Below, piece by piece: positions 5,656-50,245 of a DNA stretch of 64,000 nucleotides. Numbering within the stretch: position 1 is the stretch's first letter; every line of letters starts with the position of its first letter. The position numbers were made by a program, and so were the translations under genes. The notes beneath the pieces are model-generated. The model worked only from the letters and a program-made list of their open reading frames with translations. It searched no databases and was not told the origin of the DNA. Where the stretch lies: the NCBI GenBank assembly GCA_030691735.1, contig JAUYDS010000118.1:21536-85535 (forward strand), in the 5' to 3' direction. Source of the DNA: Candidatus Aminicenantes bacterium. GTDB taxonomy: Bacteria; Acidobacteriota; Aminicenantia; Aminicenantales; UBA4085.

Positions 5656-5669
5656 AGCGCCGTCCGCGG

Positions 5670-5835
5670 TCAAGGGACGAGCCTTCGCGGCGGAAGTACT
5701 CACCCATGTCTTATATTTACGGGTGAGTACGGCGGAAACGGATCCCCAGACGAAGTCTGGGGCCCCTGCCGCCGTGGACCCCCGGGCAAAGCCCGGGGCC
5801 CCGGGCTTTCCCTTGGCGGCCGACGGATCGCTCGG
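5670..5835 (-). repeat. Mosaic palindromic repeat element family A, copy 1 (reverse orientation), intergenic
   Basis: Contains the same modules as copies at 18305, 18636, 29501, 30124 and 49703: the GTCAAGGGACGAGCCTTCG end, a CCCCGGGC-AAA-GCCCGGGG hairpin, and a GTACTCACCC...GGGTGAGTAC hairpin. Confidence 0.85.
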
Positions 5836-16788: not shown

Positions 16789-17481
16789 TTAGAAGAGGGC
16801 CGAGTTGATGGCGTAGAGCGCCAGCTGGAGCCGGCTGTGCGTGTCGAGCTTGGCGTAGATGCTCTTGATGTGCGAGCGGACCGTGTTCTTGCTGATGAAG
16901 AGGATCTCGGCGATGTCGTCGTTGCTCTTGCCCTGGCCGATGAGCTTGAGGACCTGGAACTCGGTCGGCGTGAGCTGGTCGAGGGTCTTCTCCTTCATGT
17001 CGCGTCCGACGACCGAGATAATCCGGTCCATGATGCTGCTCATCTTGTCTCGCGGCAGCCAGATCTCGCCGCGGTGGATGACCCGGACGGCCTCCGGGAG
17101 CTGTCCCGAGGGGTCGTTCAAGTCGAAATAGCCTCGCGCCCCGACGTTGATGAGGCTGACGATCTCCTCGTGCGAGGGGATGTTCCCGATGAGGAGCATC
17201 TGCGATTTGAGCTGGTCCTTGGAGATCTCGCGGATCGCCTTGCAGATCTCGCGCATGTTGGGGAGCGTTTCGGTGCTGGCGAACAGGATGACGTGGGGTC
17301 GGAGCTTGCGGATCGAGTCCATGAAGGACTCGATGGTGTTCTTTTCGATGGTCACGACCTCGATCTGCGGGTCGATTTCAAGGGCCTTCAGGATCCCGGA
17401 CAGGATCAGGTCCGACGGGCAAAAGATGAGGACCTTGACCGTCGTCGCGTCCGAAGAAGACGGGAGTTTCTTTTTATTCAT
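16789..17481 (-). CDS. LuxR/NarL-family transcriptional regulator with atypical (Asp-less) receiver domain
   Basis: C-terminal HTH (LTPTEFQVLKLIGQGKSNDDIAEILFISKNTVRSHIKSIY); the receiver-like N-domain lacks the DD pair (LIFCPSD) and the phospho-acceptor Asp (ILFAST instead of LLDL). Confidence 0.7.
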   Translation of the reverse strand: MNKKKLPSSSDATTVKVLIFCPSDLILSGILKALEIDPQIEVVTIEKNTIESFMDSIRKLRPHVILFASTETLPNMREICKAIREISKDQLKSQMLLIGNIPSHEEIVSLINVGARGYFDLNDPSGQLPEAVRVIHRGEIWLPRDKMSSIMDRIISVVGRDMKEKTLDQLTPTEFQVLKLIGQGKSNDDIAEILFISKNTVRSHIKSIYAKLDTHSRLQLALYAINSALF

Positions 17482-17588
17482 GTGTTTTTGTGTCCCTTAG
17501 GCAATTTCGGTCCTGGCATTTCTCTCTGATTGGATGGAATTCTAATAAAACGAATCCGGGATGTCAACCCGCGGATGGGCGCGGCCTC

Positions 17589-17969
17589 TTACGGCTGGAC
17601 CTGGAAATTCCTGTCGAGCTTCACCGAAACGAGCTGGCTCCGGCTTTTGATCGAAACGTCCGATTTGACGAACGCGACTGTCCCGGAAAGACAAAGGTCG
17701 AACCGCTTTTCGAGAAAAAAGGTCTGCGGGACCCTGAGGCAAAGCAGGAGCTTGGTCCCGATCATCACCTTGGATTGAAGGCAGAGAACGGCCTCTTGGG
17801 CGCTGAGCGACGAGACTTCCGTCTGTTCCGAAAATTCCCGTTCGGCGGCGTCGAAGCCTTTGACCAGCGCGGGAAGAGAGAGCTCGAAGGACCGCTCCCT
17901 CTTCCGCGTTTCGGAAAAACCTTGAATGGAAGAGGTGCCGTTTATGTTCATATCCATGAGAGTGATCAA
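17589..17969 (-). CDS. PilZ domain protein (partially degenerate motifs)
   Basis: RKRER (RxxxR) present; second motif EVSSLS deviates from D/NxSxxG. Confidence 0.65.
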   Translation of the reverse strand: MITLMDMNINGTSSIQGFSETRKRERSFELSLPALVKGFDAAEREFSEQTEVSSLSAQEAVLCLQSKVMIGTKLLLCLRVPQTFFLEKRFDLCLSGTVAFVKSDVSIKSRSQLVSVKLDRNFQVQP

Positions 17970-18466
17970 GCCTCGGGTCGGATGATGTATTTGCTGTCGA
18001 ACTTGATCGTGACCTTCTGGCGGATGAGACGGTCGCGGTCGGCTTCGACTTGGGTCACTTTGCCTTTGATGACCATTTTCAGGGACTTGTCCTGGGCGAG
18101 CTTCTCCGGCAGGTCGATGATCAGTTTCAACCGCATGCCGATATTGATCGGATTCTTGAGGTAAAACGTCGATCCCTCGTGACTGATGTAGGTCAGGACC
18201 GTGTCCTCGGCGAATTCTTTTCCCTGGGCGTTCAAGCCCTCGACTTGGGTCGGCAGGGGAAAGGTGAATCCCTGATCCCGACCTGCCGGGGTGTGCGGAC
18301 CTTCGACGGCGGCCGGGGCGGCGGCAGGGGCCCCAGGCTTTGTCTGGGGATCCGTTTCCGCCGTACTCAGCCGCGTATTTACATCGCGGGTGAGTGCCCC
18401 GGGCTTTGCCCGGGGTTCCACTTCCGCCGCGAAGGCTCGTCCCTTGACATATGGCTCTTTTGTCAT
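17966..18466 (-). CDS. PilZ domain protein carrying an in-frame family A repeat insertion in its N-terminal region
   Basis: C-terminal PilZ fold (MRLKLIIDLPE...KGKVTQVE...VTIKFD); N-terminal residues 10-55 (RAFAAEVEPRAKPGALTRDVNTRLSTAETDPQTKPGAPAAAPAAV) are encoded by repeat element 18305..18448; RxxxR motif absent. Confidence 0.6.
   Translation of the reverse strand: MTKEPYVKGRAFAAEVEPRAKPGALTRDVNTRLSTAETDPQTKPGAPAAAPAAVEGPHTPAGRDQGFTFPLPTQVEGLNAQGKEFAEDTVLTYISHEGSTFYLKNPINIGMRLKLIIDLPEKLAQDKSLKMVIKGKVTQVEADRDRLIRQKVTIKFDSKYIIRPEA
18305..18448 (+). repeat. Mosaic palindromic repeat element family A, copy 2 (inside the PilZ gene 17966..18466)
   Basis: Shares the CCCCGGGCTTTGCCCGGGG hairpin, the GTACTCAGCCGCG...CGCGGGTGAGTG hairpin and the GAAGGCTCGTCCCTTGAC end with the other copies. 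Confidence 0.85.
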
Positions 18467-18635
18467 GATCGCTTCCTTATTCCGAATTCCTTTTCCTTGG
18501 CCTCGCCGTCAGCTTAAATCGGCCTCCAAGAGGGGTCAATCACCCCTAAAGATGAAAAAAGGGGTGATATTTCCCTTGGGGATTGTCACCTCCCGCATTG
18601 ACGATGAAGCAAGCTTCGTTTAACATGGAGGCCAC

Positions 18636-18774
18636 AGCGGCCGGGGCCCCGGGCTTTGCAGTCCTCATTCGCGAAGCGAATGAGGGCGGGCTTTGCTCGG
18701 GGGTCCACTTCCGCCGTACTCGCCCGTGAATATAAGCCACGGGCGAGTGGCGAGCCGAAGGCTCGTCCCTTGAC
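18636..18774 (+). repeat. Mosaic palindromic repeat element family A, copy 3 (intergenic)
   Basis: Modules: GGCCGGGGCCCCGGGCTTTG, the CCTCATTCGC-GAA-GCGAATGAGG hairpin, the GTACTCGCCCGTG...CACGGGCGAGTGG hairpin, and the GAAGGCTCGTCCCTTGAC end. Confidence 0.85.
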
Positions 18775-18794
18775 TGACGATTCGGAGAGTGGAT

Positions 18795-20609
18795 ATGCAA
18801 GCAGTCATTTTAGCCGCGGGCATGGGCAAACGCCTGGGAGATCTCACCCGGCATTCCACGAAATGCATGGTCAAGGTCAACGGCAAGCGCCTCATCGAAC
18901 ACGCCTTGGACGCCCTTTTGGCGGCCGGCATCCGGCATGTGGTGATGGTCGTCGGCCACGGCGCCGACGAGCTCAAAGCCTTCCTGGGAGACGCGTACAA
19001 GGGCGCCAGAGTCGATTATGTTCTCAATCCCATCTACGCGAAGAGCAATAACATTTATTCGCTGTTCCTCGTTCGCGCCTTCATGGAGGCCGATGATTCC
19101 CTTCTCCTTGAGAGCGACGTCATCTTCGACCCCGCCATCATCGAAGACTGTTTGGCCGATCCTTCGCCCAACCTGGCCATCGTGGCCAAGTTCCAGTCCT
19201 GGATGGACGGCACGGTCACCAAGCTCGATGACCGGGAATTCATCTCCTGTTTCGTTTCGAAGAAGGAGATCGTCTGGAGCGACCTGGATCAATATTTCAA
19301 GACCGTCAACATCTATAAACTGTCCAAGGCGTTCAGCAAGGAGAGGTTTTTCCCTTTTCTCGAGGTCTATATCCGGGCCAAGGGGCTCAATGAATATTAC
19401 GAGGAGGTCCTCAAAATCCTGACCTTCATCGATCAGGGAAGCATCAAAGCCTTCGACATCAGCGACAGGCTCTGGTATGAGATCGACGACCTCCAAGACC
19501 TCGACATCGCCGATGCCTTGTTCTCCCGCGGCTTGGACAAGCTCAAGGCTTTGTATCAGAGATTCGGCGGGTATTGGAGGTTCCCGGCGCTCAAGGATTT
19601 CTGCTATCTGGTCAATCCCTATTTTCCCGCGCCGCGGATGGTCCACGAGATGATCCGCAGCTTCCCCCAGCTCCTGACGAGCTATCCCTCGGGCCAAAAG
19701 GTCCAGAACCTGTTGGGCTCTAAGCTGCTCGGCTGTCCCCCCCAGCAGGTGCTCGTGGGCAACGGCGCCTCGGAGCTGATCAAAGGCCTCGTGCCGGAAT
19801 GCGGGGGACCGTTGGCCTTGTCCGTTCCGACGTTCGATGAATATCGGGCCGGCGCTCCCAAAGACCAATGGCGCGTTTTTTATCCGGCCCCCGGGACGTT
19901 CGACTATTCCGGCGATCAGCTGGCCGATTTCTGCGCCGCCCAGAAGGTCTCGACGCTGATTCTGATCAACCCCGACAACCCCAGCGGCCATTTTCTGGCG
20001 AAGTCGGATGTCCTCAGGCTCCTCGAGAGACTTCGGACGATGAACGTCCGGCTGATCCATGACGAATCCTTTGCCGATTTCGTCGACGGAACGACCGATC
20101 ACTCCCTGATCTCACCCGACATCCTGGACCGCTTTCCGAATCTCGTGGCGGTCAAGAGCATCAGCAAGTCCTACGGTGTGCCGGGTCTCCGCCTGGGGAT
20201 CATCGCCTCGGGGGATCTCGGTCTCCTGGAACGGGTGAAGAATCGCCTGTCCATCTGGAACATCAATTCCTTCGCCGAGCATTTCCTCCAGATCATCGAC
20301 AAATACAACCATGATTTCCGCCACGCCTGCCGCAACATCGGCGCGGAGAGAGAGCATCTGTTCGAACGGCTCCGGGAGATCTCCTTCCTCCGTCCGATTC
20401 CTTCCAAGGCGAATTATATTCTGTGCGAGGTCAAGGCGCCCTGGACCCCGACGCGTCTGGCCGAGACTCTCTTGAACGCCTCCTGGCTCTTCATCAAGGA
20501 CTGCACGGGGAAGATCGGTTTCGAAAAAACGCCCTGCATCCGGTTGACGGTTCGCGATCGGAACGATAACGAGTTTCTCATCTCGGCCTTGAAAGCCCTC
20601 GACAAGTAG
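18795..20609 (+). CDS. Bifunctional protein: N-terminal LicC-like CTP:phospho-alcohol cytidylyltransferase fused to C-terminal PLP-dependent class I/II aminotransferase-fold enzyme (CobD/HisC-like)
   Basis: N-domain: QAVILAAGMGKRL, NPIYAKSNNIYSLFL, LWYEIDDLQDLD (LicC-like). C-domain: VAVKSISKSYGVPGLRLGI PLP-lysine motif, INPDNPSG. Likely ATG at 18795 (GTG at 18789 possible). Confidence 0.7.
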   Translation: MQAVILAAGMGKRLGDLTRHSTKCMVKVNGKRLIEHALDALLAAGIRHVVMVVGHGADELKAFLGDAYKGARVDYVLNPIYAKSNNIYSLFLVRAFMEADDSLLLESDVIFDPAIIEDCLADPSPNLAIVAKFQSWMDGTVTKLDDREFISCFVSKKEIVWSDLDQYFKTVNIYKLSKAFSKERFFPFLEVYIRAKGLNEYYEEVLKILTFIDQGSIKAFDISDRLWYEIDDLQDLDIADALFSRGLDKLKALYQRFGGYWRFPALKDFCYLVNPYFPAPRMVHEMIRSFPQLLTSYPSGQKVQNLLGSKLLGCPPQQVLVGNGASELIKGLVPECGGPLALSVPTFDEYRAGAPKDQWRVFYPAPGTFDYSGDQLADFCAAQKVSTLILINPDNPSGHFLAKSDVLRLLERLRTMNVRLIHDESFADFVDGTTDHSLISPDILDRFPNLVAVKSISKSYGVPGLRLGIIASGDLGLLERVKNRLSIWNINSFAEHFLQIIDKYNHDFRHACRNIGAEREHLFERLREISFLRPIPSKANYILCEVKAPWTPTRLAETLLNASWLFIKDCTGKIGFEKTPCIRLTVRDRNDNEFLISALKALDK

Positions 20610-29500: not shown

Positions 29501-29568
29501 TCCACGGCGGCCGGGGCCCCGGGCTTTGCCCGGGGGTCCACTTCCGCCGCGAAGGCTCGTCCCTTGAC
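29501..29568 (+). repeat. Mosaic palindromic repeat element family A, copy 4 (minimal form, intergenic)
   Basis: TCCACGGCGGCCGGGGCCCCGGGCTTTGCCCGGGGGTCCACTTCCGCCGCGAAGGCTCGTCCCTTGAC: the two ends plus the core hairpin only. Confidence 0.85.
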
Positions 29569-29865: not shown

Positions 29866-30016
29866 ACGTTTTTCCTTGTGTTTATTAATCTTTCTTTTTC
29901 CGAATGATGATAACAGAATTCTCCGTCCGGGTCAATATGATATCGCGAATACGCCGTTCATCTGCTATTGATGGATTTATATTCAGGCGAACAGGCTATG
30001 TCCAGGCGGCGGTTAT

Positions 30017-30121
30017 AATCCCCCCACACCCCCCCTTTACTTGGCGGGAAATCAGGTTCCCCCTTTCCTAAAGCGGGCAATCAGTTCCCCCCTTTTCTAA
30101 AGGGGGGTTAGGGGGGATTAT
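30017..30121 (+). repeat. Repeat family B: tandem C5-8/G5-8 clamp hairpins (CCCCCTTTTCTAAAGGGGGG...GGGGGGATTAT)
   Basis: About 40 nt nearly identical to 46612-46652; several CCCCC-(A/T-rich loop)-GGGGG hairpins. Confidence 0.7.
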
Positions 30122-30123
30122 CA

Positions 30124-30303
30124 ACGGCGGCCGGGGCGGCGGCAGGGGCCCCAGGCTTTGCAGTCCTCATTTGCGAAGCGAATGAGGGCAGGCTTTGTCT
30201 GGGGATCCGTTTCCGCCGTACTCAGCCGCGTATTTACATCGCGGGTGAGTGCCCCGGGCTTTGCCCGGGGGTCCACTTCCGCCGCGAAGGCTCGTCCCTT
30301 GAC
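30124..30303 (+). repeat. Mosaic palindromic repeat element family A, copy 5 (longest form, intergenic)
   Basis: Contains all modules (the CCTCATTTGCGAAGCGAATGAGG hairpin, the GTACTCAGCCGCG hairpin, the core CCCGGG hairpin and both ends). Confidence 0.85.
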
Positions 30304-37200: not shown

Positions 37201-39288
37201 ATGAAGCGCAAAAACACAACAAGCGCGATCACGGCCGTGTTCGCGGCCCTGGCCTTCTTCGGCCTCGGCGCGACGGGAACGGCTCAGGATTTCACGAAAT
37301 ATCACAACTACGCGGAACTGTCGGCCATGCTCCAGAACCTGGCCGGCGCCAACAAGACCCTGGTCAAGCTGGAGTCCATCGGCAAGACGCTGGAGAAGCG
37401 CGATATCTGGGCGGTCCAGATCGCCAATCCCGGAGGCGTTCCGCTCGCGGAACGGCCCGGTCTGCTGATTGCGGCCAACTTCGAGGCAGACCATCTGATC
37501 GGCAGTGAACTGGCGATGTTCATCGCCGACTATCTCGTCAAGAACTACGCCTCGAATGCCAACGTCAAGCAGCGGCTGGATAACTCTGTCATTTATATCC
37601 TGCCCCGGATCAATCCCGACGGGGCCGAGTTCATGTGGGCGCCTTTGAAATGGGCGCGTCGGACGAACACCCGGCCGTTCGACGACGACAACGACGGCCG
37701 CATCGACGAGGACGGGCCCGTGGACCTCAACAAGGACGGCCTTATCACCGTCATGCGGGTCAAGGACCCCAACGGCGATTACATCATCGACCCCGATGAA
37801 CCCCGCTTGATGCGGAAGGCCGATCCCAAGAAAGGCGAACGGGGCGAATACGCGATCTACCGCGAAGGGATCGACCAGGACAAGGACGGCTTCATCGGCG
37901 AGGACGGGCCCGGCGGCGTCAACGTCAACCGGAACTTCATGCACGAATATCCCTACACCAAGACGGAAGCCGGGCGCTACATGGTCAGCGAGAGCGAGAC
38001 GCGGGCCGTCCTGGAATGGATGTTGGCCCACCGCAACGTGGCCGCGATCCTGACCTTCGGCGAAAGCGACAATCTGATCGTCCCGCCGAACACGAGCGGA
38101 CGGCTCTCCTCTTCCAAACAGATCGACCTCGTCGAGTTCGCCAACGCGACCGTGGCCGGCGCCAACCGCGTCGGCATATTCGCGTCAGCCGGCGGATTCG
38201 GCGGACGGGGAGGAGGTCGTGGCGGCGGAGGGGGCGAAATGATCATCAGCGAGGAGATGCTGAGCCAGCTCATGGCCGCCGGCGGTGGCCAGTTCATCAT
38301 GGGCGGCGCAGGAGGCGGAGGACGCGGGGGCCAGCAGACGGCGGCTCAGCAGCCGGCCAGCGCCCGCGCCCAACAGCCGGCTCGGGCCGCGGCGACCACG
38401 GTCAACGCGGCCGATATCGACTATTTCCGGTTGATCGGCGCCAAATACGTCGAGCTGACCGGGATTCGGCAACAGCCGCTCGTCGTCAATCCCGAAGGCG
38501 CTTTCTTCCAATACGGATATTATCAATTCGGCGTTCCTTCTTTTTCGACGCCGGGCTGGGGTTTGCCTGAAGCTCAGCGCGGCCAAAGCATGGGCATGCC
38601 TGGAATGGGACAGGGAGGGCAGCTTCCCGCCGGCGGGCAGGCTCAGGCCGCGGCCATGATGGGCCAGCGCGGGGCCGGCGGCGGACAGAGAGGCGCCGGC
38701 ACGACTGGTATGACCGGAACCGCCGCCGCGGGCGGCGGCGAACAGGCTCAGTCTTACGACCGCCAGCTCCTGCAGTGGATGGACAAGGAGAAGATCGACG
38801 GCTTCGCGGCCTGGACCAAAACCAAACATCCGGATCTCGGCGAGGTCGAGATCGGCGGGTTCAAGCCCTATGTTTCGGTCGATCCTCCCGCGGCTAAGAT
38901 CGCCGAACTGGGCAAGTCCCACGCCGAGTTCGCTCTCTATCTGTCGTCGATTTTCCCGAAGGTCGGCATCGCCAAGCTCGAGGCCACGAACCACGGCGGC
39001 GGCATTTTCCGGATCAAGGCCGAAGTCGAGAACAGCGGCTTCCTGCCGACCGCTCTCGGACAGGGCGTTACGACCCGGGCGGTTAAGGCGACCATGGTCC
39101 AACTTCAGGTCGCCCCGGAATCGATCATCTCCGGAAACGCGAAAACGAACAGCGTCCAAACGCTGGCCGGCTCCGGCGACCGGGTGAAGTTCGAATGGCT
39201 GATCAAGGCCAAGGCCGGCGACGCCATCGAGCTCAAAGTCGTGTCCCAGAAGGCGGGCGCGGACAAGCGGTCGGTGGTCCTGAAGTGA
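37201..39288 (+). CDS. Peptidase M14 (zinc carboxypeptidase)-family protein with Ca-binding-like DxDxDG inserts and Gly-rich region
   Basis: N-terminal YHNYAEL...IG.T.E.R.IW fold start typical of M14; FDDDNDGRIDEDGPVDLNKDG and DQDKDGFIGEDG motifs; first zinc motif reads EADH rather than HxxE. Confidence 0.6.
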   Translation: MKRKNTTSAITAVFAALAFFGLGATGTAQDFTKYHNYAELSAMLQNLAGANKTLVKLESIGKTLEKRDIWAVQIANPGGVPLAERPGLLIAANFEADHLIGSELAMFIADYLVKNYASNANVKQRLDNSVIYILPRINPDGAEFMWAPLKWARRTNTRPFDDDNDGRIDEDGPVDLNKDGLITVMRVKDPNGDYIIDPDEPRLMRKADPKKGERGEYAIYREGIDQDKDGFIGEDGPGGVNVNRNFMHEYPYTKTEAGRYMVSESETRAVLEWMLAHRNVAAILTFGESDNLIVPPNTSGRLSSSKQIDLVEFANATVAGANRVGIFASAGGFGGRGGGRGGGGGEMIISEEMLSQLMAAGGGQFIMGGAGGGGRGGQQTAAQQPASARAQQPARAAATTVNAADIDYFRLIGAKYVELTGIRQQPLVVNPEGAFFQYGYYQFGVPSFSTPGWGLPEAQRGQSMGMPGMGQGGQLPAGGQAQAAAMMGQRGAGGGQRGAGTTGMTGTAAAGGGEQAQSYDRQLLQWMDKEKIDGFAAWTKTKHPDLGEVEIGGFKPYVSVDPPAAKIAELGKSHAEFALYLSSIFPKVGIAKLEATNHGGGIFRIKAEVENSGFLPTALGQGVTTRAVKATMVQLQVAPESIISGNAKTNSVQTLAGSGDRVKFEWLIKAKAGDAIELKVVSQKAGADKRSVVLK

Positions 39289-39299
39289 GGAGGCGAGAG

Positions 39300-41117
39300 A
39301 TGAACAACCAGACAATCAACAACAGGAAAGGGACCTTCCGCGTCGTCAAGTCTCTCCTCGCCGTGTTGGCCCTGCTGGCCCTGATCCCCCAGGGCGGATT
39401 GACCCAGAAGTTCGCTTCGGACCCGCCGTTCAAGGTCAAGATCGATTTTAACCGCTGGCACGACACGGCTGAGATGTACGCCGACATGCGGCGGATGGAG
39501 CAGGCCTGGCCGAAGTTCGTCAAGGTCAACGTGATCGGCAAGAGCTACGAAGGCCGCGACATCATCGCCGTGACGATCAACAACCCCGACACGGGATCGG
39601 ACCTGAGCAAGGCGGCCATGATGATCGAGGCCAACGTCCACGGAAACGAGATCCAGGGCGGCGAGATCTGTCTTTATACGGTCTGGTATCTCATGGAGAA
39701 TTACGGCCGGCTCGATCAGGTCACCAGGCTCGTCAACGAGCGCGTTTTCTACATCATCCCGACGATCAACCCCGACGGCCGGCAGTACTTCTTCGAGAGC
39801 CCCAGCGCCAGCGCCCGGTCCGGCCATGTGCCGACGGACGACGACAGCGACTTCCAGTTCGACGAGGACAAGCCGGACGACCTCAACGGCAACGGCGTTA
39901 TCGAGCAGATGCGGAAATACCTGCCCGGTAAGGGAAACTACCGGCCGAGCGCGGTCGACCCGCGGATGATGGAAGCCTCTCCCTTCGGTGAGAAGGGTGA
40001 CTACATCATGCTCGGCTCGGAGGGTATCGATAGCGACCACGACGGCCGCGTGGACGAGGACGCCGCCGGCGGCTACGACGGGAACCGGAACTATCCCTTC
40101 GACTGGCAGCCGAACTACATCCAGAGCGGGGCCATGGATTTCCCGACCCAGCTCCCCGAGGCCAAGGCCGAAGTCGATTTCATCTTCGCTCACCCCAACA
40201 TCTCCGGCGTCCAGTCTTATCACAACAACGGCGGCATGATCCTGCGCGGCCCCGGCGCGGAAGCCGTGGGAGATTATCCGACGAGCGACATCCGGGCCTA
40301 TGACGAGCTCGGACGGATGGGCGAGAGGATCCTGCCGTTCTATCGCTATATCGTCATCTGGAGCGGCCTCTACACCGTCCACGGAGGGTTCATCGATTGG
40401 ACCAACGACGGCATGGGCATCCTGTCGTTCTCCAACGAGCTGTGGAGCGGCGAGCAGTACTTCACCAGCCCCGAGCTCAAGGAGCAGCAGAAGGACCCCA
40501 ACAGCCCGATCGCGCCCCAGAAGTCGCGCTATTTTTTCAACGACAAGGTCGAGTTCGGCGCCCAGTTCATGGAGTGGAAGAAGTTCAATCATCCCCAGTT
40601 CGGCGAGGTCGAGATCGGCGGCACGTGGAGGAAATTCACCAGCCGCGTCCCGCCCCGGTTCATGAACGAGGAACTCTGTCACCGCAACATGGCCTTCACC
40701 TTGATCCAGGCCGACGAGATGCCGATGATCAAGATGGGCGGGGCGGCGGCGGCGGAGAAGATCGGCGGCGACGTCTACCGCCTCTTCGTGAACATCGCCA
40801 ATCCCAAGGTTGCGCCGACGATCCTGGAGCGGGTCGCCCCGAACGGAATCATCCGGCCCGACCTGCTGACCCTCGACGGCAAAAACGTCGAAATCATTTC
40901 CGCGAGCTGGATCAGCGACGAGGAGACCTACAAAGTGAAGCCGGCCGTGACCCAGTTCATCGACCAGAAGAACCTGAAGCGGATCATGCTCCGGAACGGA
41001 CTGGCCGGCAGGACGGCCCGGACGATCATGTACATCGTCAAAGGCTCGGGCGAGGTGACGGTCAAATACGACTCCGTCAAGGGAGGAACCGCCAGCAAGA
41101 CATTGAAGCTGCAATAA
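39300..41117 (+). CDS. Peptidase M14 (zinc carboxypeptidase)-family protein, paralog with canonical HGNE zinc motif
   Basis: IEANVHGNE (HxxE); signal peptide; DDDSDFQFDEDKPDDLNGNG and DSDHDGRVDEDAAGGYDGN Ca-binding-like loops; start at the internal Met of ORF 39195..41117 with RBS. Confidence 0.7.
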   Translation: MNNQTINNRKGTFRVVKSLLAVLALLALIPQGGLTQKFASDPPFKVKIDFNRWHDTAEMYADMRRMEQAWPKFVKVNVIGKSYEGRDIIAVTINNPDTGSDLSKAAMMIEANVHGNEIQGGEICLYTVWYLMENYGRLDQVTRLVNERVFYIIPTINPDGRQYFFESPSASARSGHVPTDDDSDFQFDEDKPDDLNGNGVIEQMRKYLPGKGNYRPSAVDPRMMEASPFGEKGDYIMLGSEGIDSDHDGRVDEDAAGGYDGNRNYPFDWQPNYIQSGAMDFPTQLPEAKAEVDFIFAHPNISGVQSYHNNGGMILRGPGAEAVGDYPTSDIRAYDELGRMGERILPFYRYIVIWSGLYTVHGGFIDWTNDGMGILSFSNELWSGEQYFTSPELKEQQKDPNSPIAPQKSRYFFNDKVEFGAQFMEWKKFNHPQFGEVEIGGTWRKFTSRVPPRFMNEELCHRNMAFTLIQADEMPMIKMGGAAAAEKIGGDVYRLFVNIANPKVAPTILERVAPNGIIRPDLLTLDGKNVEIISASWISDEETYKVKPAVTQFIDQKNLKRIMLRNGLAGRTARTIMYIVKGSGEVTVKYDSVKGGTASKTLKLQ

Positions 41118-46395: not shown

Positions 46396-46507
46396 TCACG
46401 ACATCCCGATAGACGATAAACGGAGCCCGAGAGTTCCCTGACGGCTTGATGGATGGTCAGATATTTCCTGCGTCGGCCTATGGGCCCAATTTTCATGGAT
46501 GCGCCTA

Positions 46508-46652
46508 ATCCCCCTTGATCCCCCTTTAGAAAAGGGGGATTCCGAGAATTGACCCAGCTATTATAAAGGAGGATCTGAGATTTTATCCCCCCTTTTCTAA
46601 AAAGGGAGTCCCAGCTTCTTTCCCCCCCTTCTAAAGGGGGGAGGGGGGATTA
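46508..46652 (+). repeat. Repeat family B: tandem C/G-clamp hairpins (second locus)
   Basis: CCCCCTTTAGAAAAGGGGG, CCCCCCTTTTCTAAAAAGGGAG, CCCCCCCTTCTAAAGGGGGGAGGGGGGATTAT; the terminal ~40 nt match the 30082-30121 locus. Confidence 0.7.
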
Positions 46653-48191: not shown

Positions 48192-48232
48192 CACAGACCG
48201 TAAGTGGACCTAGGTCCACTTACGGTCTGTGG
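48192..48232. terminator. Bidirectional hairpin between convergent pirin and GH28 genes
   Basis: Perfect 19-bp inverted repeat CACAGACCGTAAGTGGACC-TA-GGTCCACTTACGGTCTGTG. Confidence 0.6.
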
Positions 48233-49977
48233 ACATGTTTTGCTCGGGGAGGAATGTTATTGAGTTCGCGAACGGTGGACGGGCCGACCTCCGGTTCTAT
48301 TTTGACGGCCGATCGGGCCGGCCGGAAATCGTTGCCGCTGAGGACGATGTCGTTCGTCCGCCGACCCGAGAACCGGAAGAACTCATCTGTTCCCAGAGCG
48401 GCCCGGCAGTTCCGGACCAGAGCCCCTTCGACCTGATGGAAAAGCACCGCCGGCGCGGTCTTGGCTTTTTCTGTCGCGGCCTGGCGCCCCACAAACCCGT
48501 CCAATTCGAGGCCCTGGACCTCATCCAGGCACAGAGCGCTTTCCCACTTCGCGTATTCCAGGCCGTCCCAGACGATCTCGACGTTCCTCAGCTTGAGGTT
48601 CCGGGCCCATTTGAACGTCAGGGCGTGAACGGCCTTATCGTAAGGCGCGGCTGGGTCGTGGGCGATGAACAGCGTCACGTTGTCCATCGTGATCCCCTCC
48701 AGCCAGCTGTCGGGATGCCCGTTGCAGACGCTGGCGCCCTGGCCGCGGGCGATGACGTTGGTGATCTTCACGTTCCGGATCCGCCCGGCCGGCCGGTCGT
48801 CCTCTTTTTTCCAATTCTTGTGCACCTCGCTCCGTTTCTTGATGTTGAAATGGAACGGCTCGCCGTCGCCCCACCAGAACCAGGCATAGCGGACGCAGTC
48901 GATGGTCAGATTGGACAGGACGACGTTCTCCACCACGCCGCCGTCGAAGTTCATGAAGGAGATGCCGCGATTGGCCTTGGTGATCACGCAGTTGTCGATG
49001 GTGACGTTCCGGACCGCGTTCATGTTGCCGTCGCAGAACTTGATGGCGCTCGAGGCGGAGGAGAGGCGGCAGTTGGTCACGGTGATGTTCTCGCAGGGGA
49101 GGGCCGGGCCGAACCAGTTCATGGAATAAAAGACGAGCGCGTCGTCGCCGGTTTCGATGGTGCAGTTCGAGATGCGGAGGTCCCTGCAGCCGTCAGGATC
49201 GATGCCGTCGGCCCAGACGCCGTCCTTGAGGCTGGAGCGGATGAATACGCCGTCGATGACCGTCCGTTCACAGCCGTAGAGATGCATGGTCCAAGACGGG
49301 GAATCGATGAAATTCAGGCCGCTGATGCGGACGTCCCGGCAGCGCAGCAAAAGAACGAGCTTCCCGAACTGGTCCTCCTTGGGGAAGCTGCGGACGAGCG
49401 GTTTGCCGAGCTTTTCCATCTCGACCTGGTTCGGGTAAATGAAGTCGTCGTGAAAATCTCCCTTCGGCCGGTAAACATAGCCGCCCTGGCCGTCGATGGT
49501 GCCCCGGCCTTCCAGGCTGATCTGGGTCAGGTCTTCGCCGTAGAACAGGGCGTCCTTGTCGAACGCCGCTTTGTTTTTGATCGAATAGATCGTCGCCCCC
49601 GCTTCGACGAAGAAACGGACATGGCTGCGGAGATGGATCGTCCCCGTCGCATATTGCCCCGGCGGAACATAGACCTGGCCGCCGCCCGCCGCGGCGCAAG
49701 CGTCCACGGCGGCCGGGGCCCCGGGCTTTGCCCGGGGGTCCACTTCCGCCGTACTCGCCCGTGGATACAAGCCACGGGCGAGTGGCGAGCCGAAGGCTCG
49801 TCCCTTGACCGCCTTTTGGATCGCCGCTTGAGCGCTCCCGGCCTTCGTTCCCGTCGCCCCGAAGTCCCGGATGTTGAAGATTTTTTGGCCCGACTGGCCG
49901 GCGAGGGCGGAAGGAATGAAAACGATCCCTCCCCAAACGATGATCCCGATCATTCTTCTGGCGAGCACGGTTCTCAT
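48220..49977 (-). CDS. Glycoside hydrolase family 28 (polygalacturonase-like) secreted enzyme carrying an in-frame family A repeat insertion
   Basis: GH28 parallel beta-helix motifs (NFIDSPSWTMHL, DGIDPDGCRDLRISNC, TGDDALVF); signal peptide; 34 extra residues (VKGRAFGSPLARGLYPRASTAEVDPRAKPGAPAA) between the conserved AIQKA and VDACAAAGGG. Confidence 0.8.
   Translation of the reverse strand: MRTVLARRMIGIIVWGGIVFIPSALAGQSGQKIFNIRDFGATGTKAGSAQAAIQKAVKGRAFGSPLARGLYPRASTAEVDPRAKPGAPAAVDACAAAGGGQVYVPPGQYATGTIHLRSHVRFFVEAGATIYSIKNKAAFDKDALFYGEDLTQISLEGRGTIDGQGGYVYRPKGDFHDDFIYPNQVEMEKLGKPLVRSFPKEDQFGKLVLLLRCRDVRISGLNFIDSPSWTMHLYGCERTVIDGVFIRSSLKDGVWADGIDPDGCRDLRISNCTIETGDDALVFYSMNWFGPALPCENITVTNCRLSSASSAIKFCDGNMNAVRNVTIDNCVITKANRGISFMNFDGGVVENVVLSNLTIDCVRYAWFWWGDGEPFHFNIKKRSEVHKNWKKEDDRPAGRIRNVKITNVIARGQGASVCNGHPDSWLEGITMDNVTLFIAHDPAAPYDKAVHALTFKWARNLKLRNVEIVWDGLEYAKWESALCLDEVQGLELDGFVGRQAATEKAKTAPAVLFHQVEGALVRNCRAALGTDEFFRFSGRRTNDIVLSGNDFRPARSAVKIEPEVGPSTVRELNNIPPRAKHVHRP
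49703..49809 (+). repeat. Mosaic palindromic repeat element family A, copy 6 (inside the GH28 gene)
   Basis: TCCACGGCGGCCGGGGCCCCGGGCTTTGCCCGGGGGTCCACTTCCGCC-GTACTCGCCCGTG...CACGGGCGAGTGG-...GAAGGCTCGTCCCTTGAC. Confidence 0.85.
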
Positions 49978-50245
49978 CGCCCGGCCTCCTTGTTCAAAGG
50001 CATTGTCCCTATCATTGCGATGTCGCCGGCGGTTGTCAAGGCGGGGGCCCAATCCCGCGGCTCCGCCTCATTCATCCGGGGGATATGCGGCCCTGCCCTT
50101 GCTATTTGGATGCGAAATGCATAGAATTAATGGCAATTTTGAGAGTAGAAACGCTGGACCGATCGTTAAGCGCGAAGCGATATGATCACGTCTGACTTTC
50201 AAACTCTCAAAAGGATGTCATGTCGACTCGGGTGAGAGGTATAGT

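Follow-up and report, generated by a model that had tools for sequence, protein, structure and literature searches.

The window, as we call the whole 64-kb stretch of DNA analysed, contains at 17966..18466 on the minus strand a gene that carries a repeat copy close to its 5' end. The ORF and its translation are as the original prediction described, and the repeat is genuine and in frame. The features of the gene are the following.

17966..18466, minus strand: predicted PilZ-fold ORF of 166 aa, a 119-aa gene plus a 47-codon insert (NCBI MDP2915261.1)
17981..18271, minus strand: region encoding the modelled six-stranded barrel, with PilZ domains as best matches
18303..18307, minus strand: GTCGA, the target pentamer (Val-Glu codons), which directly follows the insert when the coding strand is read and is already present in the empty sites
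18308..18448, minus strand: in-frame 141-nt repeat copy between codons 6 and 7, reading VKGRAFAAEVEPRAKPGALTRDVNTRLSTAETDPQTKPGAPAAAPAA (residues 7-53), as seen from the empty sites of L001 and L002 and from the protein gap
18320..18397: 78-nt module, nested or added, by which the 141-nt variant differs from the 63-nt unit; it holds hairpin 2 at 18365-18395 and hairpin 3 at 18331-18349
18397..18415: hairpin 1, CCCCGGGC-TTT-GCCCGGGG, at the core of the basic 63-nt unit
18464..18478, minus strand: native ATG (18464-18466) and Shine-Dalgarno sequence AAGGAAG (18472-18478), conserved in element-free orthologous loci

NCBI record MDP2915261.1 is the identical protein, annotated as "hypothetical protein" Q8O91_07390 of a Candidatus Aminicenantes MAG and encoded on a 93.9-kb contig. 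The window protein had no Pfam match to PF07238 at E values up to 1, NCBIfam gave no match, and a sequence-profile search of the PDB with the family profile matched no solved structure. Because nothing significant came from Pfam, NCBIfam or the PDB profile search, the PilZ label was tested by fold. The AlphaFold2 model, made with the orthologue alignment, has a barrel of six strands at residues 66-162 with pLDDT mostly >90, of which the first strand is residues 71-78. Residues 1-65, which include the entire insert, gave pLDDT values of 47-58 and lacked secondary structure in the model. By use of Foldseek against the PDB, the top matches were MotI/DgrA (5vx6), Alg44 (4rt0/4xrn), BcsA (5ej1), and YcgR (5y6g) with E values of 1e-4 to 1e-3, and split-barrel flavoproteins ranked below the PilZ domains as more distant matches. 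PF07238 was weakly matched by 5 of 22 aligned family members (best E value 3e-4), and some orthologues are named 'PilZ domain-containing' by NCBI. The modelled structure supports the assignment as a PilZ-fold protein: the six-stranded barrel is shared with the PilZ domain proteins of PF07238 and PilZ domains that bind c-di-GMP are its closest structural matches. Gene order in two orthologous loci is that of the window: a divergent NTP-transferase/aminotransferase gene and then, in turn, the PilZ-fold gene, a 122-aa paralogue, a regulator of the LuxR type, and a weak-PilZ gene. This neighbourhood includes further PilZ-like genes.

By protein search, 82 orthologues were retrieved from Aminicenantes and related metagenomes, and nearly every one is 116-127 aa long. 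In all 21 of the orthologues aligned, M(T)KEPY is directly followed by VE/AE...GFTFPLP. Compared with these 21, the window protein has a clean block of 47 residues after residue 6 and before VE, and the element-free reading is MTKEPY joined to VE..GRDQGFTFPLP. The DNA of two syntenic orthologous loci runs from ATGACGAAAGAGCCATAT directly into GTCGAAGAT, and the window DNA reads ...CCATAT, then 141 nt (GTCAAGGG...GGCCGCC), then GTCGAAGG. Comparison with orthologous PilZ genes lacking the element, the check that the original prediction had proposed, gave a clean 47-residue gap in the protein and 141-nt empty sites at two loci. The insertion that had been placed at 18305-18448 is real, but its length of 144 nt must be corrected to 141 nt. 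The boundary is ambiguous by 3 nt, 18308-18448 being equivalent to 18305-18445, with GTC at both junctions. Nothing longer than GT(C) is found as a target duplication at this site, and the frame and sequence downstream of the insert are intact. The predicted junction peptides are MTKEPYVKGRAF and APAAVEGPHTP.

In a 90%-identity cluster of 11 members the insert was found only in the allele of the window genome, the other ten proteins being of 119-134 aa. Three of these cluster mates were inspected, including that of 134 aa, and all were without the block; the lengths of the remainder leave no room for it. The exact junction, GAGCCATATGTCAAGGGACGAGCC, had no match in JGI metagenome contigs. The ORF copy is identical to another copy in the window, at 30189-30303, at 114 of 115 positions, and because of this near identity the insertion is judged recent; as far as the available sequences go it is private to the window genome. 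The window derives from a MAG and the repeat, with 6 copies in 64 kb, is abundant, which are the circumstances in which a metagenome assembler might have spliced a repeat into a gene. However, both flanks are collinear with the orthologous loci, the junctions are base-exact, in frame, and adjoin GTSGA, the target usual in this family (149 other copies), and independent assemblies have the same kind of insertion in many genes. We consider the chance of an assembly artefact to be close to negligible.

The Shine-Dalgarno sequence AAGGAAG lies five bases 5' of the ATG, which is 18 nt upstream of the insert. Shine-Dalgarno sequence, ATG, and the first six codons (MTKEPY) are kept in element-free loci, all upstream of the insertion point, and the NCBI pipeline picked the same ATG. 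A different arrangement would have the true start codon downstream of the element, which would then be an untranslated upstream sequence. Such a reading draws on the observation that a repeat at the N-terminus of a gene is in many cases an artefact of annotation, a point made for REPs (PMC3733652), and several other surveyed copies proved to lie just upstream of real starts (in L028, L133, and L173 the real start is downstream of the copy). Against it, no ATG, GTG, or TTG occurs in frame from the end of the insert to strand 1. Downstream of the element the frame next offers a TTG (residue 78) and then an ATG (residue 111), neither of which precedes the end of the first strand, and use of either would give a truncated barrel. 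The check for downstream starts suggested in the original prediction found none before the barrel, and the GTG start envisaged there at VEGPHTP fails, the Val codon being GTC. A GTG inside the element (residue 16) is a possible alternative start, from which most of the element would still be translated. Given also that the ATG, Shine-Dalgarno sequence, and MTKEPY of the orthologues are conserved 5' of the insertion point, a start downstream of the element is extremely improbable.

The 18-nt end of the repeat, GAAGGCTCGTCCCTTGAC, occurs six times in the 64-kb window, compared with 0.04 occurrences expected. The window copies other than that in the PilZ-fold gene are as follows.

5669..5773: oppositely oriented copy, with a partial unit after it, flanked by convergent genes
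18636..18774: second copy, 139 nt, in a divergent intergenic region, ending 20 nt before the ATG (18795) of the neighbouring gene; absent from the orthologous loci
29506..29568: basic 63-nt unit, intergenic
30126..30303: composite copy of 178 nt, intergenic; the 115 nt at 30189-30303 are those matching the ORF copy at 114
49708..49809, minus strand: 102-nt in-frame copy in a GH28 gene, splitting AAIQKA from VDACAAAGGG; same reading frame as the PilZ copy

The GH28 gene occupies 48220..49977 on the minus strand, within an ORF of 48220-50052 whose real start is the ATG at 49977. Pfam finds GH28, pectate-lyase-like, and beta-helix domains in this ORF. Fourteen orthologues read AAIQK followed by AVDACAAAGGG, where the window protein has 34 extra residues. 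The nearest orthologous DNA (L204) has both flanks identical and exactly 102 nt fewer: L204 reads ...AAAAGGCG directly joined to GTGGACGCT, and the window reads ...AAAAGGCG, then GTCAAGGG...GGCCGCC, then GTGGACGCT. The in-frame GH28 insertion that had been predicted to share the frame of the PilZ copy is therefore confirmed by 14 element-free orthologues and by an exact empty site.

The repeat family was surveyed by use of a DNA anchor, and hence without bias as to frame, in one genome per species and in the JGI metagenomes. These sources listed at least 79 and at least 120 stretches, respectively. After removal of duplicates there were at least 215 unique copies, and nearly all of the named records were Aminicenantes or Aminicenantales MAGs; at least one match (L083, Verrucomicrobia) arose by chance. 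The family is modular. The basic unit is 63 nt, GTCAAGGGACGAGCCTTCGCGGCGGAAGTGGACCCCCGGGCAAAGCCCGGGGCCCCGGCCGCC, and the commonest form among the copies listed is 102 nt, in which a 39-nt hairpin module is joined to the 63-nt unit. In the PilZ variant of 141 nt the 63-nt unit is joined by a 78-nt module with two hairpins, and a 180-nt form is the 102-nt form plus the 78-nt module. All of these canonical lengths (63, 102, 141, and 180) are multiples of three. Off-length variants, for example of 101 nt, are common among the copies outside the verified genic set.

Terminal inverted repeats of 15-30 bp were sought at the ends of the element and none were found, the ends GTCAAGGGACGA... and ...CCCCGGCCGCC not being inverted copies of one another. 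The end pair is GGCGGCC...CCCTTGAC, and the subterminal complementarity of the ends is limited to a short GGCGG/CCGCC. Among 149 copies the right flank was strongly biased (frequencies of G.92, T.79, C/G.84, G.85, A.61) and the left flank was random. This GTSGA sequence pre-exists in both base-exact empty sites, those of the PilZ and GH28 genes. In these two empty/filled pairs no target-site duplication was seen beyond the GT (GH28) or GTC (PilZ) that is shared. A known RNA family was considered and rejected, because an Rfam scan of 17400-19000 at E values up to 1 gave only two sub-threshold chance matches. With lengths of ~60-180 nt, the element has no room for a transposase gene. A phmmer search with approximate IS608-TnpA-like and RAYT-like queries found no Y1/RAYT-like gene among the ORFs of at least 70 aa in 1.37 Mb of flanking DNA, and no long autonomous versions (a left end with a distant right end) were found in the surveyed DNA.

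A copy was scored as genic if Pfam domains span or flank it, or if element-free orthologues show the insertion. A codon-usage classifier for the flanks was too noisy, and we used Pfam checks of spanning ORFs in its place: readings that ran through a copy without a stop and extended far on either side were all checked against Pfam. Among the copies listed, 19 of 215 (~9%) were verified as genic, and they distribute over the reading frames as follows.

F0 (VKGRAF...PGAPAA), 12 copies: PilZ, GH28, NuoN-like (L031), LigA (L033), DPP4 (L040), LeuRS (L098), amine oxidase (L105), beta-CASP nuclease (L130), methyltransferases (L131 and L190), DUF1015 (L139), alpha-galactosidase (L193)
R1, opposite strand (TAAGAPGFARGSTSAAKARPLT), 5 copies: TolB-like (L032), histidine kinase (L064), GT9 (L080), GH38 (L087), PIG-L (L149)
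R0, opposite strand (GRGPGLCPGVHFRREGSSLD), 2 copies: GH38 (L126), SecA (L203)
F1 and F2: none of the 19 verified genic copies

One F2 insertion was seen when P0092 was compared with its homologue P0088. Long spanning ORFs in F1, F2, or R0 at L027, L072, L019, L022, L048, L011, L016, L152, and L168, and those of L193 in F2 and L098 in R0, matched no Pfam family and were discarded as spurious. In L028, L173, L141, L133, and L111 a domain lies only downstream of the copy, and these were counted as intergenic or as ambiguous N-terminal cases.

All 15 genic copies with a well-defined end have lengths that are multiples of three, as read-through requires. The original prediction took the shared frame of the PilZ and GH28 copies as a sign that the element has an ORF-compatible frame. 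The shared frame stands, but a single such frame does not: genic copies are read in F0, R1, R0, and once in F2. The basic unit is open in five of the six frames and the 141-nt variant in four, and because stops close only one frame of the former and two of the latter, the notion of one compatible frame is too simple. Under equal use of the three open frames the finding that 12 of 12 forward copies are in F0 would have a probability of ~2e-6. However, in the long ORFs of the surveyed loci, where GC3 is 0.72, GTSGA occurs 1385 times, and 1039 of these occurrences (75%) fall in codon phase 0. Target choice alone predicts 75% F0, and 0.75^12 is 0.03. Hence, the predominance of F0 is largely explained by the phase bias of GTSGA: forward insertions read VKGRAF...PGAPAA because the target is usually a phase-0 Val-Asp/Glu codon pair in GC3-rich coding DNA. 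On the reverse strand the commonest target phase predicts R0, yet R1 (five copies) exceeds R0 (two). Many 102-nt copies have a loop TAA that puts a stop in R0, which accounts for only part of the R1 excess. Target choice and codon bias together can produce a common frame, which need not come from peptide selection alone.

According to the original prediction the insertion sits where the c-di-GMP-binding RxxxR motif should be, which would explain the absence of the motif, and may have inactivated or rewired the PilZ protein. The insert does fall in the N-terminal segment before strand 1, the general region of RxxxR in PilZ domains, and the NCBI PilZ name is lost with the insert, a 119-aa cluster mate being so named. 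However, when the 25 residues before strand 1 were searched, RxxxR was found in 0 of 78 element-free orthologues, and it is absent from the window protein also. Moreover, the insert lies in the N-terminal tail ~8-13 residues upstream of the expected RxxxR position, between ancestral residues 6 and 7 and upstream of the GRDQ segment that adjoins strand 1. Because none of the 78 orthologues carries the motif, its loss predates the insert: the lack of RxxxR is an ancestral trait of the PilZ subfamily, with which the insertion has nothing to do. The second motif, D/NxSxxG, also appears non-canonical across the family, where its position reads [YF]I[SND]H[EQ]GS; the G is invariant, the S is frequent, and the D/N position is aromatic in one register. 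In lacking RxxxR, and apparently in this second motif, the subfamily differs from the PilZ domain proteins of PF07238. With the barrel also untouched in the AlphaFold2 model, replacement or disruption of an RxxxR segment by the insertion, with inactivation or rewiring of the protein, is very improbable. The N-terminal tail varies among the orthologues already.

The RNA of the element has a predicted fold of -92 kcal/mol (z = -4.2 versus shuffled sequences), with structure beginning ~24 nt downstream of the A of the ATG. An mRNA structure of such stability could lower translation. In the extreme case hairpins just past the start codon would have silenced the gene, by blocking translation or destabilizing the mRNA, and the gene would be a very young pseudogene that has yet to decay, which is in keeping with the recent date of the insertion and with an allele known from one MAG only. 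We consider such silencing unlikely. In the predicted fold the start region is free, neither the start codon nor the Shine-Dalgarno region being sequestered, and a promoter and terminator scan found no terminator-like site in the genic copy. Furthermore, the same family is read through in the essential genes LigA, LeuRS, and SecA, which must be expressed. The intact downstream ORF is uninformative as to continued function because the insertion is so recent.

The reading that we prefer, and consider probable, is a recent in-frame insertion of a selfish repeat that is translated through and nearly neutral, in a permissive N-terminal tail. A non-autonomous, GC-rich repeat built of hairpins and found throughout the Aminicenantes recently entered a PilZ-fold gene of 119 codons near its start, directly before a GTCGA that was already there. 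The gene would then be translated through the element, giving 47 extra residues rich in Ala, Pro, Thr, and Arg in an unstructured and variable N-terminal tail. As the barrel is unchanged in the model, the insertion would be neutral or nearly so, selfish DNA that is tolerated in a permissive spot. This tolerance would derive from three properties of the family: canonical lengths that are multiples of three, frames that are mostly free of stops, and insertion adjacent to GTSGA. To judge from the model, the insertion most likely does no more than lengthen a floppy N-terminus. For the PilZ-fold gene itself this would mean little change, in that its subfamily never had a canonical c-di-GMP motif and the protein now has a floppy stretch of 47 residues in addition.

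A way of life like that of the Rickettsia RPEs, proposed in the original prediction, is borne out by in-frame copies in the PilZ and GH28 genes and in 17 further genes. According to PMC10969869 and PMC3733652, RPEs (Ogata et al. 2000) are palindromic repeats found in frame in unrelated protein genes, and such in-frame colonization is their defining mark. In-frame colonization of genes has also been described for ERIC, QMITE1, and other MITEs (PMC10969869), and GTAG- and CGTC-tagged REPs lie inside genes in several phyla, often in replication or repair genes (Di Nocera et al. 2013, PMC3733652). With the RPEs the Aminicenantes family shares short palindromic repeats (~100-150 nt) that lie in frame in unrelated genes, a conserved peptide, and the presence of both genic and intergenic copies. 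Insertion where the fold tolerates it is a further likeness, here modelled for the PilZ gene only, the tail of which is modelled as disordered. However, the host belongs to an unrelated phylum and is free-living and uncultivated, and the element is GC-rich. The family is also modular (63 nt, +39, and +78), has a one-sided GTSGA target, and has 19 verified genic copies among the 215 listed. Phylum and base composition set it apart, and it is unlikely to be a member of the Rickettsia series RPE-1 to RPE-10, of which it is an analogue only.

The intragenic REPs are likewise small GC-rich hairpin units that form composites and are mostly extragenic, with some genic copies that include replication and repair genes. 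They add 20-30 or more residues to proteins, and the CGTC class is without a known dedicated transposase (PMC3733652). By-eye comparison with the published description of the tagged REPs indicates that the Aminicenantes element lacks a GTAG head. Its CGTC string (GGCTCGTCCC) overlaps a stem of 6 bp closed by a loop of 3 nt and is not a terminal tag, whereas CGTC-tagged REPs have a terminal tag on an AT-started stem of 8-9 bp, a loop of 4-5 nt, and a CCA tail. The Aminicenantes units are also longer and of fixed lengths that are multiples of three.

Members of the IS200/IS605 family insert next to a short specific sequence. The IS200/IS605 PATEs and the REP/RAYT systems share with the Aminicenantes repeat subterminal hairpins, the lack of terminal inverted repeats, the lack of a real target duplication, and a one-sided target. 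They differ in that no Y1/RAYT gene or autonomous copy was found near the Aminicenantes elements with our approximate queries, and that the repeat might be a non-autonomous element of the IS200/IS605 type is put forward only as a hypothesis. The classical MITEs (ERIC, Correia/NEMIS, and QMITE1) are also non-autonomous elements of <300 nt with many copies and the possibility of in-frame fusions (PMC10969869), but the Aminicenantes repeat is without their terminal inverted repeats of 15-30 bp and without a defined target duplication. Our literature search found no paper linking Aminicenantes with such repeats. The repeat is best described as an RPE-like or intragenic-REP-like element, and the phenomenon itself is already known.

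Potentially more original could be the modular lengths in multiples of three, the one-sided GTSGA target, and the insertions in LigA, LeuRS, and SecA. A bolder interpretation, which we offer tentatively and think somewhat less probable than otherwise, is that a distinct coding-compatible mobile repeat has colonized a whole uncultivated phylum. Its modules in multiples of three (63, +39, and +78), its lack of stops in most frames, and its phase-0 GTSGA target would pre-adapt it to enter genes harmlessly, LigA, LeuRS, SecA, and NuoN included; an enzyme that acts on DNA hairpins would move it, and Aminicenantes proteins would repeatedly acquire disordered linkers from it. The family provides a second large, clean, and very recent data set on selfish palindromic repeats that survive inside genes, one that lies outside Rickettsia, in free-living Aminicenantes, and has base-exact empty sites. 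Automatic annotation is also affected by the inserts, which cost the window protein its PilZ name and caused ORFs to be extended or bridged elsewhere. The repeat should be masked or recognized when Aminicenantes MAGs are annotated.

The PilZ-fold locus carries more than the in-frame 141-nt repeat copy in the 166-aa ORF (17966..18466, minus strand). Two further features lie beside that ORF:

18636-18774, a 139-nt copy of the main repeat family (the GC-rich palindromic element) in the divergent promoter region
17589-17969, minus strand, a 126-aa paralogue adjacent to the 166-aa ORF

Next to the 139-nt copy is a gene encoding an NTP-transferase/aminotransferase fusion; only 20 nt separate the end of the copy from the ATG of that gene (18795), and the copy stops just upstream of the gene's Shine-Dalgarno sequence. 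As this copy is missing at the orthologous loci, the PilZ-fold locus took two insertions. In the 126-aa paralogue, which had no match in Pfam, RKRER (that is, RxxxR) precedes the first strand; the 166-aa ORF lacks RxxxR at that position. The orthologous loci have a third gene, a weak PilZ, after a LuxR-type regulator.

The membrane protein P0092 has two insertions of the repeat family relative to P0088. The first is read in forward frame F0 (VKGRAF...PGAPAA) after residue 6 (MNPMNA|VKGRA...), the same as in the PilZ gene, and the second, in mid-protein, is read in forward frame F2 (QGTSQGGGSESPGKARSPIRRGR). Three other surveyed loci have copies in or beside genes:

L203:369-3215, plus strand, SecA with a repeat copy in the wing/scaffold domain
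L051:1885-3840, minus strand, a 652-codon stop-free reading across a 102-nt copy
L009:5257-6570, minus strand, RibBA with a 63-nt copy

Internal indels are present in the SecA copy, and hence the reading moves between element frames and then back. This switching suggests frame-restoring changes after insertion. In the L051 reading, the C-terminal portion of a Metalloenzyme-superfamily domain is followed by the 102-nt copy and by a segment with the phosphoglycerate mutase iPGM_N domain; the reading is either a fusion or two genes bridged by the element. In RibBA the 63-nt copy follows MKNKSATAT, and the DHBP-synthase domain begins only after it. A GTG in the flank of the copy could be the start codon, so the 63-nt copy may or may not be translated.

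In the GH28 gene of the window, the start lies downstream of the mechanical one:

48220-50052, minus strand, GH28 gene, mechanical ORF with start TTG 50052

This TTG lies too far upstream; the orthologues and NCBI MDP2915290.1 begin at ATG 49977. From that ATG the product has 585 residues, 34 of them repeat-derived.

Other repeats of the window are:

30002-30134 and 46506-46648, a second palindromic repeat family of the type CCCCCCTTTTCTAAAGGGGGG / GGGGGGATTA
37674-40086, repeated Asp-rich, DxDxDG-like coding motifs, e.g. DDDNDGRIDEDG

The second palindromic family is unrelated to the main one, and one of its clusters directly adjoins the main family's copy at 30126-30303. The DxDxDG-like motifs are found in two nearby regions, separated by about 2 kb, and their recurrence suggests calcium-binding-type repeats in paralogous genes.
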